From an uncultured bacterium (GTDB taxonomy: Bacteria; Omnitrophota; Omnitrophia; Omnitrophales; Abzuiibacteriaceae): a stretch of DNA of 64,000 nt. Made by a program: the position numbers. Of the stretch, positions 24,001-30,000 are shown piece by piece. How positions within the stretch are numbered: position 1 is the first letter of the stretch; each line of letters opens with the position of its first letter. The stretch covers positions 32,001-96,000 of the forward strand of contig CAYLXA010000006.1 of NCBI GenBank assembly GCA_964387845.1, read 5' to 3'.

Positions 24001-27000
24001 GTTCAAAAATTGTTCACATTCCGTCAAATTGGAGTGTCACGTGCAATTTGGACCGCGCTTATCAAATTATTGAATCGGGCGGCGTTTTATCAATCAAGGC
24101 ACATGCCGTTAAAAAAATGGGAACTTATGTGAGTGCCGATGGTTTAGATGATGCTTGCCAAAATTATTTGAGCAAACTATTTCATTCCTTAAAATCCCGT
24201 TTCGGCAACTCGATTTGGTGGACAACTATGAAAGAATTGGCCGTCCGATACCGCGACTCGCAATTTTCACATGCAAATTCTTCTTAATCCCTCCACGAGC
24301 GCTGAAGAGTATATTCAATGCGCGGATGCTTGTTTCGGAAATTGGGGCGGCCGGCCTATGTATGAGTGGGTGTTCAACCGGCAAGTCGGTCCCATCCCGT
24401 CCGATCGTTTTGTTTTGGTGCGCGATGGTAAAATCGCCGGCGGAAGCGCGTTAACTTTCAGGCCTCTAAGGACTTCAAAAGGCAAATTAATGCAAGCGGC
24501 CGTTATCACCGGTTCATTCACTCTGCCAAATTTTAGAAAGCAGGGATTTTTTTCTACCATCATTGATTTAACTTTTAAGAGGTCTATTGAATTAGGGGCA
24601 TCTGTTTATCTTGGTTTTGCAGCAGCCAAGAATATGAGCGTGAACCGGTTGTTGGAGGCGGGCTGCGAAATTCTGCCAAGCCATTATTTTCAATTCAATA
24701 CCCAAAGTGCAAAGCAAACAGACTTTCGGATTCGTGTTTGCAATGTTGATGATTTTGATGCTCAAAAAAGGGCGTTCAATATTCGGTCAAAGCGCATGAA
24801 AGGGAAAAGCCATTTTGAATATTCGTTGGACGAATGGAAGGGGCAGATGATTAACAGGCCTCACCCGACTTTTTTATGTGAAGTTTTTGATGATCGTAAA
24901 AATTTGGGTTATTTTGTGACGAGCGATATTGAGGAGAAATACCGTTTGATTGAATTTTTCGCAGAAGATGAATCGTTTGATGAAAAAATTGTTTTGGCTG
25001 CTATTAATTATGCTCGTCAGTTTACGCAAGTCATAGATGCCTATACGATTGAAGCCAATACGCATAGAATTTTCCAGAATTGCCATGGCTATGAGATATC
25101 GGGATTATTATTTTTGAGAGCTTGCTCCCAGGGCGCAGACAGATCGCTCACACGTGCTTATTTGGACCAAGATCCAGCGCGCACGCAAAGCAGTTTATTG
25201 CCGTTTGCTTTTACCTCAGGCGATAGAATGTAATTTGAATTTGTTTTGGAAAAATGAGTTTTTTTCCGAATGTATTTTAGGATATTTATCATGAAACTTG
25301 AAACTAGTAGAGGCTAAAATGATCCAATCTCAGGCTTTCGATTACTCAAAGGAAAAGCTGGAATATGTGAATTGTAATTTTTGTGGATCTGACAATTATT
25401 TAATTTTGAGCAAGAAGGACCGTAATGGTTTAGATGTTAGAATGTGCATATGCAAATCTTGCGGGCTTATGTTTTTGAATCCCAGGATGACCCGAGAAGG
25501 TTATGATCTGTATTATCAGCAGGAATACCGTTCTCAAATGGAAAGACTTAAAATCAAAGAAAGTTCCAGAGATGATAATGTTTTATTTGAAAGAGGGAAA
25601 AGGGCAGGAAGGGAAATATTCAAACTTCTTGGGAAATATTTAAAAGATGGTATTACCATCGATGTGGGTTCTGGTACGGGAGGAATCTTGAAAAGTTTTC
25701 AAGAGCTTAACCCCGCTTTAATTCCTGTAGGTATCGAGCCTTCATCGTCAGCAGCTGAGTATGCCATTGCACATGGCGTAAAAACGTACACTTGTTTGTT
25801 TGAAGATTTCTCAGAAAATCTCGGCTCGATTTCTAATATTATGAGCATGAGAAATTTAAATCATTTATTGGATCCAAAGGCTTTTTTAGCTTGGGCTTAC
25901 CAAAATCTCTCTGACGATGGGCGGCTTGTTTTGTTGGTGCAAAATTTTCGCCACGCATCAAAGGATCGAGGAAAAATGATCTCTCAAGTAGATCATTGTT
26001 ATTATTTTGTTCCTGAAACTATCATTCCGCTTCTTAAACATTCCGGATTTGAAATTATTTTTTTTGATAATCCAGACGATCAAGGAATTTACAGTGTTTT
26101 AAAAAAGAAAAAAGCAGGACTGCCTGCAAGTATGAAAATTGTTGCAAAAAAGGTTGTCAAAAAGTATTTTTCTGTGAACGATCAAAAAATAGCCGGCAGC
26201 ATTTTAAAATCGTTTTCTCCCATTAAATTAAAAGTAGCAAAAATAAAATATTTATTTAATCATGCTATATTAAAGTACTTGAACTTCTAAATGGGCCAGA
26301 GACAGCCACTCTATCACGAGCCCGTTTAAGCTTGACTTCTTGAGGCCCCTTCCCCATAATAAACTTCTAAAATTAGCTAATTTTAGCTGTTGCAGTTCAA
26401 AGGAATATAAGGGGAATAACCAAGTTATTTTTAGGTTTTTATTTAATTAATGCTATTACATACGACTGCTAGATACATATCACGAAGATTATACTCTCAC
26501 GTATTTGCCAAGACTCCTCAGACAAAAGCGTTGTGGTGGTCATTCCGCGAGCATGTCCTGAATCGTTTTATACGGGGCGAGACGATCAAGGTTGAACTTT
26601 CCGCTAACTGCAATGCGCGCTGTTCGTTTTGCTGGATGTTTCAATCCGAAGCTAAGCCGGCAGGATTGATGACGCTGGAGAATTTCAAAAAATTTATTGA
26701 TATCAATAAAAACGATTTCAAAAAGCACCGGACGCACATCCAGCCGTTTTTTAACGGGGAAGCGCTGGTCAATCCGCATTTTTTTGATTTTATCGATTAT
26801 ATTGTCGCCAACAAAATTCCTTTGGCCCGTCTGGATACCAACCTCGGCGTGAAGCGCGATATGGATAAATTGATGAGCTATCCGTGGCCTGTCATTTGCG
26901 TCAACATCGGAGGAATCACAAAAGAAGTGCACGAGAAGGTTATGAAGACGAGATGGGAAATTGTAACTGAGAACTTGAAACGAATTTTACAAATCGACAA

Positions 27001-30000
27001 GAGCCGCGTGTTTATCAAAGCAACTCCGGTGAAGATTAATCTTCATCAAATTAAATCATTTCCACAATTCATGAAGGAGATGGGCGGCGACCCGGATCGT
27101 GTTGAATTTGGGACGACGGGTTTTAATATTCCTGCTGAAGCGACTGATCAGGAAATCGTGGATTATTTTAACGAGGTTGTTTCTCCGGAGGTTAACGAGC
27201 ATTTGCGATTTACGTATGATCTCTCGAAGCCCCGTTATGATATCAAAGCCAAAAGGCCGGGATGTCATTTTTTAAATGACTGCGTCACGTTTGATGGCAA
27301 GTTGACCATTTGCTGTCATGATCAATTGGGAAAACTCAACGTAGGAAACAGTTTTGAAACTCCGCTTTATGATCTGAAGAAATCCAAGAAGTATCATGAT
27401 TTTCGTCTGGCAGGCATTGATCAAAAGTTTAAGATGTGCAAAGAGTGCAATTAGTCGTTCAGTTTTTCCAGTTTCCCGCCCGGTTCGTATCACATTCGAA
27501 ACCATCAGCAATGCTAAAGAAAGGTTGGTCGGCAGCGTGAGTGCTTTTTGGAAAAAACACAGGGTCATGGTTGCGGGCGGCAGCGGCTTTTTGGGGTCTT
27601 ATGTTGTAGAGAAGATTCGTCAGCGTGGTTGCCGGAATATTTTTGTTCCGCGATCTTCTGTGTATGACTTGCGTGAAGAAGCTCGGGTCCGCAAAGCCTT
27701 CCAAAAGTTTAAGCCAACGCTTGTCATTCATTTGGCTGCGGTTGTGGGAGGGATTGGCGCTAACCGGAAAGAGCCCGGCCGGTTTTTTTACGATAATGCG
27801 GTGATCGGCGTGCATTTAATGGAGCAAGCCCGGCTCTCAAAAGTGAAAAAGTTTGTTGCAATCGGTACTATCTGCGCTTATCCCAAATTTTGCCCCGTTC
27901 CATTCAAAGAAATTAACCTGTGGAATGGTTATCCGGAAGAAACGAATGCGCCGTATGGGCTGGCGAAGAAAATGCTTTTGGTCCAAGCTCAAGCCTATCG
28001 CGCTCAATATGGATTTAATGCCATCTACCTTTTGCCGGTCAATCTCTACGGCCCGCGCGATAATTTTGATTTAGAATCCGGCCATGTTATCCCGGTTTTG
28101 ATCCGAAAATTTATAGAAGCGAAAAGAAAGAATAAAAAAGAAGTCGTTTTGTGGGGCAACGGCAGCCCGACGCGGGAATTTCTCTATGCGGCAGATGCGG
28201 CGGAAGGTATTTTGCTTGCAGCCGAGAAATACAACAAACCCGATCCGGTTAATTTAGGTTCCGGTAATGAAATTAGTATTTTGGACTTAGCTCGTTTAAT
28301 TCAAAAACTAACAGGCTATAGAGGAAAGTTGATTTGGGACAAAACCAAGCCGAACGGCCAGCCGCGCCGATGTCTTGATGTTTCTCGGGCAAAACGAGAA
28401 TTTAATTTCAAAGCTGCTGAAAAATTAGAAGATGGATTGCGCAAAACAATTCAATGGTACCAACAAAACCGAGAACCCATCCTTTTTAATCGTAAAAATT
28501 CCCGTTAATAATGTTATCCAACCACCAGTCTTCCGAAAGGGATCTTTCCCAGAGATTTGGCAGAAATAAAACCAATGAAATTAGCCGTCTCATTTATGAA
28601 ATCGGGAGGCGGGAAGGGCTCGCATCGGATGAAGTCCTTAATCAAGCGCTTCAAGCCATCTCGCCGGCTGCGACTCTAGAATCTGTCGCCTTCGCTTCTC
28701 TTAAGAAAGCGCTTCTCAAACGCCGCTATCCCAGTTTTTCGGAAGAAGAGTTTTCCAAAATTTATTTTGCGCCGCTGCGTTTTCCGGAAAGTCGGGAAGA
28801 GGCCGATCCTCAAACAAACGATTTTCGGCCGGATGAAATTGTCATCGCACGGCATGCCAAAAATTTTCCACTCACGAAACGAATCACGAGTTTTTGGCCC
28901 GAAGTTCCCGTCCGCGAAATTGAATCGCTGGATGAGTTGCGAAGGCCCAAGAAAGAGTGGCTGGGCGATTTCGGTAAAAAGCGAATTGCGATTTCCAACG
29001 AACACTTTGATTTGGTCAAACCGTGCCCCTGTACGGCGAATGCCTGTTCCTGCAATTATCATGTCCTCAACATTGGCTACGGCTGCCCGTACGATTGCAC
29101 CTATTGCTATCTGCAGGATTATCAAAATCTGCCGGCCATTGTGCTGCCGGCTGACCTGGAACCATTTTTAAACCAAATGGGCTCAGTTCTGAAGCAAAAA
29201 CCGGGATTTTTTACACGTATCGGCACCGGCGAGTTTGCGGATTCTTTGGCACTCGATTGGCTGACGGAATATTCCAAAACCCTGGTTCCGTTTTTTAAAA
29301 ATAAGCCGGTCATTCTGGAGCTGAAAACCAAAAGCGATTGCGTAGAAAATCTGCTAGAACTTGATCACGGCGGCCGTACGGTGATTGCGTGGTCCGTCAA
29401 TCCCGAGCGCTTTTCTAAGGAAGAAAAAAGAACAGCGCCGGTTCATAAGCGCCTTGAAGCTGCGCAGCTTTGCGAAAAAGCCGGCTATGGAACGGCTTTC
29501 CATTTTGACCCGATCTTACAAGCTGCAAATTGGGAAGAAGATTATCAAGATTTGGTCCGCGATTTATTTAATCATGTAGGCATTTCGTTGCGTTGGATTA
29601 GTCTGGGAACGCTGCGGTTTCACAAAGACTTGCGCGGCGTCGCCGAATTCAGGCATCCGGACAGCGAAATTTTCTTAGGAGAGCAGCGTTTGGATGTTTC
29701 CGATCAGAAAATGCGGTATGCGGATGAAGCCAGAGTCTCTGTTTATCGGAAAATGATTTCTTGGATCAAGCAGTTCAACGAAAAAGTTCCGATTTATTTA
29801 TGTATGGAACCGCCCGAAATTTGGAAAACCGTCTTTGAGAGCAAGCCCTATCAGGGAAGGATTGACAGCTGGATTGCGCACGGTTCAGCGCGTTAATTTT
29901 CCGGATTCTTCGGTTCCGGCTTTCCGAATTTCTGAATATCCGCTTCCTTCATTAAATTCTGCCACCAGCCCGAAAAAGCTTCCGCGGCTTTTGCGCGTTC

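Follow-up and report, generated by a model that had tools for sequence, protein, structure and literature searches.

Do radical S-adenosylmethionine (SAM) enzymes encoded at the end of a bacterial surface-glycan locus all act on sugars? The question is raised by a stretch of 64,000 nucleotides (nt), hereafter the window, from an uncultured member of the Omnitrophota (GenBank assembly GCA_964387845.1, contig CAYLXA010000006.1, positions 32,001 to 96,000, forward strand). Two radical SAM genes are present there, gene 1 (26450-27454, 334 amino acids (aa)) and gene 2 (28511-29896, 461 aa), both co-directional, as an earlier note on this DNA had reported, with a methyltransferase gene (25298-26290) and a gene for a GDP-L-fucose-synthase-like (Fcl-like) short-chain dehydrogenase/reductase (SDR). 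The earlier note regarded gene 2 as akin to spore photoproduct lyase (SPL), considered both genes to be embedded in a glycan biosynthesis operon and proposed, from this placement, sugar modification rather than DNA repair for both. Our analysis shows that the two proteins belong to uncharacterised families and are unrelated to each other, and the two halves of the proposal fared differently. For gene 1, a sugar-tailoring role is well supported by its glycan contexts and by a fusion to a glycosyltransferase of family 2 (GT2). For gene 2, the argument from placement was lost, and the sugar role is partly backed by a recurrent GT2 partner. Taken together, we favour an explanation in which gene 1 encodes a sugar enzyme and gene 2 an enzyme acting on nucleotide-linked sugars or glycoconjugates, with a probability of about 0.5 for the whole. 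The SPL-fold clade of gene 2, with its GT2, PNP_UDP_1 (PNP) and ParB-like partners and its domain fusion, is the more interesting of the two results. No characterisation of either family was found in the literature on SPL homologues with GT2 or ParB, on ParB together with radical SAM proteins, on SPASM or Twitch proteins in capsule or O-antigen loci, or on COG1533.

An SPL-fold protein outside the described SPL families

The features of gene 2 are as follows.

28511..29896, + strand: gene 2, radical SAM protein with the SPL fold, from an uncharacterised clade; first conserved gene next to the variable glycan cassette (PF20903, SPL in the PDB, AlphaFold2 (AF2) model, Foldseek, synteny, guanine-plus-cytosine (GC) content)
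28511..28765, + strand: N-terminal helical domain, residues ~1-85 (hhalign, alignments, five helices with a predicted local distance difference test (pLDDT) of ~73-96)
29024..29053, + strand: C172-P-C174-x6-C181 motif 5' of the cluster motif; C174 corresponds to SPL position 76, the Clostridium-type H-donor Cys (alignment)
29084..29107, + strand: C192-x3-C196-x2-C199 radical SAM motif with Y198 and Y200, the equivalents of SPL Tyr96 and Tyr98 (alignments)
29714..29719, + strand: invariant R402-Y403 on a predicted beta-hairpin, strands 392-394 and 401-403 (model and 79-member alignment)
29801..29803, + strand: C431 (YLCME), third extra invariant Cys of the clade (79 of 79 members)

Gene 2 carries GYGCPYDCTYCYLQ (GYGC192PYDC196TYC199YLQ), the SPL-type cluster that the earlier note had recognised, and matched the Pfam SPL family PF20903 with an E-value of 1.6e-26 (93.5 bits, cut-off 27). 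Against the SPL of G. thermodenitrificans in the PDB, the E-value was 1.2e-16 for the single sequence and 8e-35 for the family profile. The AF2 model (pLDDT 85.6, predicted template-modelling (TM) score 0.87) was aligned by Foldseek with SPL 4FHC over 343 columns at a TM score of 0.83 (normalised to SPL), 24% identity and an E-value of 1e-20, and the next matches after SPL had an E-value of 4e-4. The fold is thus common to gene 2 and to the whole 340-aa SplB enzyme (PDB 4FHC-4FHG; TIGR04070). The scores against the two SPL equivalogs of NCBIfam were far below their cut-offs (TIGR04070, 90.8 bits for a cut-off of 400; TIGR03886, 53.3 bits for a cut-off of 437.55), and gene 2 is therefore an SPL-fold enzyme outside both described SPL families. 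To our knowledge, SPL is the sole characterised member of this fold.

The structure of SPL has shown that SAM is bound by Lys174 and Ser195 and phosphate by Arg273, that the fourth Cys acting as H-atom donor is Cys140 in the Bacillus type or lies at position 76/77 in the Clostridium type, and that the lesion is flipped by a beta-hairpin with Arg304/Tyr305, Lys309 being also named (PMC3467042). The putative cluster-binding triad of gene 2 (C192, C196 and C199), which is followed by a Tyr as in SplB, aligns with SPL C90, C94 and C97 and is invariant in the 79 aligned members of the clade, as expected for the 4Fe-4S-binding site that had been proposed. Likewise, K274, S295 and R369 align with SPL Lys174, Ser195 and Arg273 and are invariant or nearly so. 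Other positions depart from SplB: the Cys140 site is an invariant Glu (Glu241), and the equivalent of Tyr98, a strictly conserved residue of the SPL radical relay, varies among the 79 members (Tyr200 in the window), with Tyr in 42, Phe in 33 and Ile in 4. The clade also has the extra invariant Cys C172, C181 and C431, each found in all 79 members, whereas C174 is a Cys in 53 of the 54 long forms and a Gly in each of the 25 short forms. We infer that these extra Cys residues serve as a metal site. At the C-terminal side, K400-x-R402-Y403 and R408 are invariant and lie on the predicted hairpin, a possible counterpart of the Arg304/Tyr305/Lys309 element of SPL in the model, the sequence alignments ending before the hairpin, at 392-394.

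Gene 2 extends beyond SPL at its N-terminus by approximately 100 aa, less than the 150 aa first estimated: the SPL match begins at residue 100-107 and the first cluster Cys is residue 192 against 90 in SPL. Within this extension, residues 13-81 align with residues 189-250 of a 313-aa ParB-like partner encoded in locus L037, where the GT2, PNP, ParB-like and SPL-like genes stand consecutively. The profile-profile comparison (hhalign) gave a probability of 98.2% and an E-value of 3.2e-14 over 71 columns, and the motifs G-x-N-x-x-x-E-x-x-R-L-x-x-E-I-x-x-R-E/D and L-K-x-x-L-x-x-x-R-Y/F-P are common to both. The profile of the domain found only chance-level matches in the PDB (L7Ae, E 0.029). Because of its homology to the ParB-like partner, the extension is, as judged from these profiles, a fused fragment of a partner protein and not a random addition. 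The full-length partner matches Noc/ParB structures with an E-value of 2.7e-17 over both the N-terminal and DNA-binding domains, and in other phyla it retains the GxxRR and ENxxR boxes. Gene 2 itself falls outside the definition of the ParB/Noc family, as it has the helical domain only, without cytidine triphosphate (CTP)-binding boxes or a helix-turn-helix (HTH) domain. Among the matches listed, the 450-470-aa form is kept across ~120 homologues; the nearest named ones come from metagenome-assembled genomes (MAGs) of Candidatus Omnitrophica/Omnitrophota (up to 62% identity), MAGs of Endomicrobiales being also close.

Cassette border and recurrent partners of the SPL-like gene

The earlier note had counted gene 2 into the glycan cassette, and comparison with related genomes leads to another assignment. 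In L001/L002, which hold a 75%-identical relative, the radical SAM, Fcl and SPL-like genes are followed by convergent SurA_N, T2SS-G and FadL genes, in the same order as in the window. In L003/L004 (62%-identical relative), the SurA_N/T2SS-G/FadL flank after the SPL-like gene is the same and the upstream cassette differs, with SDRs, GT2, Wzy, GT1 and a Bac_transf priming transferase ending 2 nt before the SPL-like start. The GC content of the SPL-like gene (0.478) corresponds to that of the flank (0.47-0.49), the last cassette genes having 0.35-0.45. Since the upstream gene changes in the relatives, the downstream flank stays and the GC content matches the flank, the SPL-like gene opens the conserved part at the edge of the variable cassette and is not a cassette member; its position by itself accordingly says little in favour of a sugar role. 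Only 2-14 nt separate its start from the last cassette gene, whatever that gene is, and it would be co-transcribed by read-through from there. A gene directly in front of a conserved flank should accordingly not be counted into a variable glycan cassette.

To describe the clade, one genome per GTDB species was surveyed: at least 590 relatives were found, 80 loci were kept, and the gene and its neighbours could be called in 76. Long forms with the N-terminal domain (50 loci) come from Omnitrophota, Elusimicrobiota (Endomicrobia), WOR-1, Auribacterota and others, and short forms (26 loci) from Binatia, Desulfobacterota, Nitrospinota, Acidobacteriota and KSB1. The clade is thus large, uncharacterised and widespread in Omnitrophota, Elusimicrobiota (Endomicrobia), Binatia, Desulfobacterota and Nitrospinota. 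The neighbourhood survey that the earlier note had suggested, on whether such genes recur in exopolysaccharide (EPS) loci, found none in an EPS locus among these 76 other species-level loci. What recurs instead is one GT2 subfamily, GT2 c1, which lies directly upstream of the SPL-like gene in 20 of the 72 loci with an upstream gene and within four genes of it in 31 of 76. This subfamily is sharply delimited in phmmer searches (at least 184 bits for full-length members, at most 45 bits for other GT2s), and its best matches are polysaccharide-type GT2s (TuaG, EpsD, WcaA). The direct upstream gene of the long forms is GT2 c1 in 18 of 47 cases and a gene for a divergent PNP_UDP_1 protein, nucleosidase/phosphorylase-like, in 12, most of them overlapping the SPL-like start by 4-35 nt, while a ParB/Noc-like gene, usually preceded by GT2 c1, takes this place in 13 of 25 short forms. 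Fusions were also encountered, GT2-SPL in P0104/L008 and PNP-SPL in P0052, P0084 and L017; for SplB, in contrast, no such partners exist.

The reciprocal test, starting from 67 metagenome loci anchored on GT2 c1, found an SPL-like gene downstream in 23, 18 of these with a ParB-like gene, and an exclusive link of GT2 c1 to the SPL-like gene was consequently rejected. The remaining GT2-c1 loci have mixed neighbours, with PNP_UDP_1 in five. The PNP partner was also considered as an ordinary MtnN, futalosine hydrolase or HpnG and rejected as such, its best NCBIfam match reaching 25 bits.

As for DNA repair, no classical repair gene was seen among the immediate neighbours of the SPL-like gene in the surveyed loci, and the 25 most frequent Pfam families of these neighbours include no DNA methylase, nuclease or repair gene; the exception is dnaN, on the opposite strand beside the SPL-like gene in 5 Nitrospinota loci. 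DgkA also recurs nearby, as do lipid A and Kdo genes on the opposite strand. Two further operon types deserve mention. In L020, L021, L033 and L046, a B12-binding radical SAM gene, a radical SAM gene of the PA0069/Rv2578c type (COG1533), a GT2 gene and the SPL-like gene form one operon. In L026, L041, L047, L053 and L063, a DUF362/2x[4Fe-4S] ferredoxin-like protein, PNP_UDP_1 and the SPL-like protein are encoded together, and the ferredoxin-like protein could be a reductant of the radical SAM cluster. The GT2-SPL fusion of L008 (JGI Ga0118719_1001395) is found on the opposite strand inside a lipopolysaccharide (LPS) supercluster, between KdsA/B/C/D-LptC/B genes and LpxI/A/C/D-OmpH-BamA genes.

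Possible substrates of the SPL-like protein

It is because GT2 c1 recurs upstream, with one fusion, and not because of the placement in the window, that a glycosyltransferase-coupled role of the clade is plausible. We propose that gene 2 would use SPL-like chemistry, in which a 5'-deoxyadenosyl radical abstracts a hydrogen that is given back by a conserved Cys near 172-174, without repairing spore photoproduct. The substrate would bear a nucleotide, most likely as a pyrimidine-nucleotide-linked sugar or a related glycoconjugate precursor, and the product would then be transferred by the partner GT2. The residues of SPL that grip the phosphate of the lesion, and also pyrophosphate, could equally grip a nucleoside diphosphate, which would reconcile the fold with the GT2 partner. 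Such a substrate is favoured by the polysaccharide type of the GT2, by DgkA, by the envelope-gene neighbourhoods and by the glycan-locus border in this lineage. We regard it as an even chance, and prefer it to a nucleic-acid target.

Several observations weigh against this proposal. (i) About two thirds of the GT2-c1 loci lack an SPL-like gene, and no member of the GT2 partner subfamily was found when it was sought in the 64-kb window. (ii) Many neighbours are unrelated housekeeping genes, so that some of the adjacency may be mere synteny of compact genomes. (iii) The ParB/Noc-like partner keeps its GxxRR and ENxxR boxes and matches Noc including the DNA-binding domain. (iv) A COG1533-type radical SAM gene is in the same operon as the SPL-like gene in 8 loci, and this family is LexA-regulated in several other phyla (PMC4951493). 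(v) The invariant K-x-R-Y hairpin is similar to the DNA-flipping hairpin of SPL.

The last three points favour, together with the phosphate-binding Arg of the SPL fold, a non-canonical action of gene 2 on a nucleic acid, whether DNA or another: a pyrimidine would be repaired or modified, the ParB/Noc-like partner or the fused N-terminal domain would recruit or activate the enzyme, and the GT2 would glycosylate the base. The complete SPL fold with its conserved Arg273, Lys174 and Ser195 equivalents, R408 next to the invariant hairpin residues and the piece of the ParB/Noc-like partner fused to the window protein are in agreement with this view, as is the regulation by the SOS response, in other phyla, of the co-operonic COG1533-type family. 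A precedent exists in phages, where thymine dioxygenases are encoded alongside a ParB-CTPase-fold protein that they require and glycosyltransferases are found in related systems (PMC13229309). There too a ParB-type protein stands beside an enzyme of a family that acts on thymine of DNA, but the phage enzymes depend on O2 and 2-oxoglutarate, whereas gene 2 is a radical SAM protein in cellular genomes of anaerobes. The clade had no relatives among 2.9 million viral contigs scanned, and a phage-borne origin is therefore weakened. Moreover, the long forms of Omnitrophota, the window protein included, keep only the small helical domain of the partner, without the ParB N-terminal or HTH domains; the commonest neighbour families hold no DNA methylase, nuclease or repair gene, dnaN excepted; the GT2 partner resembles TuaG, EpsD and WcaA; and DgkA and envelope genes recur close by. 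We consider a nucleic-acid substrate rather unlikely on balance. A more specific form of it, in which the SPL-fold protein and its ParB/Noc-like, GT2 and PNP partners would constitute an oxygen-independent, chromosome-encoded system of host DNA base hypermodification, the radical SAM enzyme activating a carbon of thymine or another pyrimidine for glycosylation by GT2, is improbable in our view. If true, it would be the anaerobic counterpart of base J and of the glycosylation of hydroxymethyl-pyrimidines in phages, in Omnitrophota and several other anaerobic phyla.

A transfer of the adenosyl radical itself was also considered, in which gene 2 would adenosylate its substrate, PNP_UDP_1 would strip the adenine and GT2 would elaborate the ribose-derived product. 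This logic is known from HpnH/HpnG/HpnI in hopanoid side chains, from MqnE/MqnB and from arsenosugar synthesis. The PNP partner, recurrent, sometimes fused and distinct from the MtnN, DeoD and HpnG equivalogs, would fit it, and so would the joint presence of GT2 and PNP with the SPL-like gene in L037, the five loci where GT2 c1 adjoins PNP even without the SPL-like gene and the recurrent B12-binding radical SAM protein. A simpler role of the PNP would be the removal of inhibitory 5'-deoxyadenosine, however; no adenosylating member of the SPL fold is known, MqnE is only a marginal structural match (E 1.5e-2), and PNP and GT2 are mostly alternative upstream neighbours that are seldom found together. 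These points make adenosyl transfer quite improbable.

The weakest candidate, and a very improbable one, is an ordinary SPL that repairs ultraviolet damage and merely adjoins the glycan locus; SPL acts on 5-thyminyl-5,6-dihydrothymine in the DNA of spore-forming hosts. In its favour, SPL is the best database match, the fold is conserved, and the window protein shows both Y-C-Y and, at the site used by Clostridium SPLs, a Cys. Against it stand the equivalog scores, which are far too low, an invariant Glu in place of the Bacillus-type Cys140, a Tyr98 equivalent that in 37 of 79 members is Phe or Ile, three extra invariant Cys, an extra domain and the tight coupling of the gene with GT2 or PNP; the hosts, moreover, are non-sporulating bacteria living mostly in dark anoxic habitats.

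With the nucleotide-linked sugar or glycoconjugate precursor as our preferred substrate, the clade would represent a new glycoconjugate-synthesis function for the SPL fold, and with a nucleic acid, a new DNA transaction in largely uncultivated organisms. In either case, hundreds of species-level genomes of non-sporulating, mostly anaerobic phyla have retained the fold and several of its active-site residues.

The Twitch-like enzyme of the cassette and the remaining locus

Gene 1 shows the following features.

26450..27454, + strand: gene 1, radical SAM enzyme with a probable truncated SPASM (Twitch-type) C-terminal domain, glycan-locus tailoring enzyme (Pfam, alignment, AF2, Foldseek, contexts, GT2 fusion)
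26609..26632, + strand: CxxxCxxC (CNARCSFC; C54, C58, C61), [4Fe-4S] radical SAM motif (invariant in 29 of 29 family members)
27263..27448, + strand: putative auxiliary-cluster region C272-x10-G283-x4-C288(C289)…C330-x2-C333, the protein ending at N334 (family alignment)

The CxxxCxxC motif reported earlier is present and aligned with the 4Fe-4S-binding site of Radical_SAM PF04055, which gene 1 matches above the cut-off (E 9.7e-10, 39.3 bits, cut-off 29.5). Its description as SPASM-like with a Cys-rich C-terminus stands in part. The protein matches Pfam SPASM over model positions 10-67 (E 2.3e-7, 31.4 bits, cut-off 21.5), but the domain is truncated, with only 4-5 conserved Cys in place of the seven of the full motif, the CX5CX3C…C part being missing. 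In the alignment of 29 family members, C272, G283, C288, C330 and C333 are invariant and C289 is conserved in at least 90%. The SPASM subfamily has two auxiliary clusters and the seven-Cys motif CX9-15GX4C-gap-CX2CX5CX3C-gap-C, while in the Twitch subfamily (BtrN, MoaA, SkfB) the SPASM domain is truncated and four Cys serve as ligands of one auxiliary [4Fe-4S] cluster. The pattern of gene 1, CX10GX4C…CX2C, combines the opening half of the SPASM motif with a CX2C at the end, and since the C-terminus is truncated in this manner, the domain is probably of the Twitch type, with one auxiliary [4Fe-4S] cluster on C272, C288, C330 and C333. The spacing presumably resembles that of the four ligands of BtrN.

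The AF2 model of gene 1 is confident (pLDDT 91.3), and its Foldseek neighbours were anSMEcpe, SuiB, BtrN (TM 0.70 on the target), SkfB, BlsE, DesII, MoaA and SpeY, at 12-16% identity; several of these nearest structures act on sugars or nucleoside sugars. With BtrN (4M7T; E 3e-9) and anSMEcpe (4K36; E 2e-11), gene 1 has in common the radical SAM core and the C-terminal Cys-rich beta-hairpin/helix domain. It differs from both in the low identity, in TM scores of 0.5-0.7, in the lack of any PDB chain matched in a sequence search, in NCBIfam matches all far under their cut-offs and in belonging to a small distinct family restricted to glycan loci; an N-terminal helix pair of ~45 aa is absent from its more distant members. 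DesII (8HZY) and BlsE (7VOB), among the structural matches, and AprD4 (6FD2) abstract hydrogen from a sugar carbon of nucleotide- or nucleoside-linked sugars, and we take the dehydratase-plus-reductase logic of AprD4 and its partner reductase AprD3 to resemble the order of the radical SAM and Fcl-like reductase genes in the window. These enzymes have no sequence-level kinship with gene 1 and belong to antibiotic pathways instead of surface-glycan loci, and an SDR is not a conserved partner of gene 1 in its other contexts.

A word-indexed search gave 43 relatives of gene 1, and an exhaustive profile search of 1.84 billion representatives gave 63 at E<=1e-30, beyond which a generic SPASM continuum begins, in agreement with a family that is, by sequence, small, distinct and uncharacterised. 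All five independent contexts examined are glycan loci: (i) the window with L001/L002; (ii) L009, with Wzy, GT4, Asn synthase and DUF2334; (iii) L010/L011, with GT2 upstream and an Alginate_exp porin downstream; (iv) L012, with Asn synthase, methyltransferase, GT1s and MBOAT; and (v) L013, with methyltransferase, a second SPASM protein, GT1s and a MurJ/Wzx-like flippase. The DUF2334 deacetylase-like neighbour is present again in L009 at 49.5% identity, a close relative of gene 1 (P0165, E 2e-120) is a GT2-radical SAM fusion, and in more distant relatives the fusion partner is a methyltransferase or cytidylyltransferase domain. On account of these contexts, of the recurring DUF2334 and of the fusions, gene 1 is well supported as a sugar-tailoring enzyme belonging to the glycan cassette. 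We propose that hydrogen would be abstracted, most likely, from a sugar carbon of a nucleotide-sugar or of a lipid-linked glycan intermediate. The auxiliary cluster would accept a second electron in an oxidation to a keto sugar of the BtrN/anSME kind, or else the outcome would be an epimerisation or a dehydration, the dehydrated product being possibly reduced by the adjacent Fcl-like SDR. The product would be passed to the tailoring neighbours (DUF2334 deacetylase-like protein, GNAT, methyltransferase and Fcl-like reductase) and a glycosyltransferase. The reaction type, drawn from the Twitch architecture and the nearest structural relatives, is a guess, because the conserved partners vary between contexts, and this counts against the favoured explanation.

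The competing view makes gene 1 a protein or peptide maturase, similar to anSME or to enzymes of ribosomally synthesised, post-translationally modified peptides (RiPPs), with an enzyme or peptide encoded nearby as its target. Although anSMEcpe and SuiB are the top structural matches, the sub-threshold NCBIfam matches are maturase families and a 93-aa open reading frame (ORF) lies directly upstream of the relative in L009, gene 1 has one auxiliary-cluster motif where anSME and SuiB have two, neither a RiPP recognition domain nor a conserved precursor gene was seen, and the contexts are all glycan loci, with the fusions described above. A maturase is hence improbable, and we retain the sugar-tailoring role. 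Radical SAM reactions on surface glycans have hardly been described, and the compact Twitch-type family of gene 1 could be tested with nucleotide-sugars.

A separate observation concerns the conservation of gene 1. The protein is 91.9% identical between the window and L001 (7927-8934), with 69-79% for all neighbouring genes, which by this comparison would reflect either unusually strong selection or recent gene exchange.

The other features around the two genes are listed below.

25298..26290, + strand: class I SAM methyltransferase, Methyltransf_23 (Pfam PF13489, E 1.8e-12; GC 0.348, GC at third codon positions (GC3) 0.314)
26332..26360, + strand: best sigma-70-like promoter match upstream of gene 1, weak evidence (TTGACT-17-CATAAT, 10 of 12 matches, in the 159-nt gap)
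27537..28508, + strand: GDP-L-fucose-synthase-like extended SDR, start revised to GTG (NF047922, 289.5 bits, cut-off 500; Pfam Epimerase, E 5e-54)
29893..30489, - strand: SurA_N-like periplasmic chaperone gene, start of the conserved flank (Pfam SurA_N_3, E 1.8e-16; syntenic in L001-L004)

ORF annotation and Pfam describe a large surface-glycan cluster at ~129-28508, with sulfotransferase, deacetylases, GNAT and FemAB-like acyltransferases, SGNH esterases, GT4, Wzx, Wzy, NeuA/NeuB/NeuC-like genes, a Capsule_synth protein and several methyltransferases. Past 29896, housekeeping and regulatory genes follow, namely those of the SurA_N-like chaperone, the T2SS-G pseudopilin, FadL and two-component systems. 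The methyltransferase gene at 25298-26290 looks like a low-GC, lineage-specific and apparently recent insert into the cassette, given that its GC content is far below that of its neighbours and that the locus of the 75%-identical relative (L001/L002), syntenic in other respects, lacks it.

The junctions described in the earlier note are correct for the gap between the methyltransferase gene and gene 1, noted as 160 nt and measured at 159 nt (26291-26449), and for the 2 nt between the fcl and SPL-like genes. An overlap of gene 1 with the Fcl-like gene, in contrast, was ruled out. The longest Fcl-like ORF begins 141 nt further upstream (27396-27536) and creates a spurious 59-nt overlap, whereas the start is most likely GTG 27537, judging from a 323-aa product identical in length and N-terminus to the L001 orthologue and from a GAAAGG Shine-Dalgarno-like motif upstream; the gap is then 82 nt. 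The SDR reached a full-length E-value of 3.4e-86 against the Fcl equivalog NF047922 with a score under its cut-off, so that it is best called Fcl-like, and the ORF annotation of the glycan locus showed no Gmd gene. Promoter and terminator scans of 22-31 kb did not exceed the shuffled expectation (19 promoter-like matches found, 15.8 expected); only the location of the best of these matches, inside the 159-nt gap, is suggestive. Rfam and tRNA scans of the window gave no match. The SurA_N-like gene is convergent to the SPL-like gene and their stop codons overlap by 4 nt, which leaves no room for a terminator between them.

Some minor observations on the locus can be added. The SurA_N-like protein has 198 aa in the window against 311-322 aa in two related genomes, ~120 aa having apparently been lost. 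The glycan locus starts with a pyruvate-kinase-barrel/HpcH-like protein without the usual C-terminal domain (129-1106), and the Sulfotransfer_1 protein noted together with it (129-1106 and 2073-2969) hints at a sulfated or unusual sugar. The longest NeuA-like and NeuB-like ORFs (15332-16081 and 16024-16992, - strand) overlap by 58 nt, probably through the choice of start codon, and in L001 these two genes have the opposite orientation relative to the rest of the locus when compared with the window, which indicates a local inversion.

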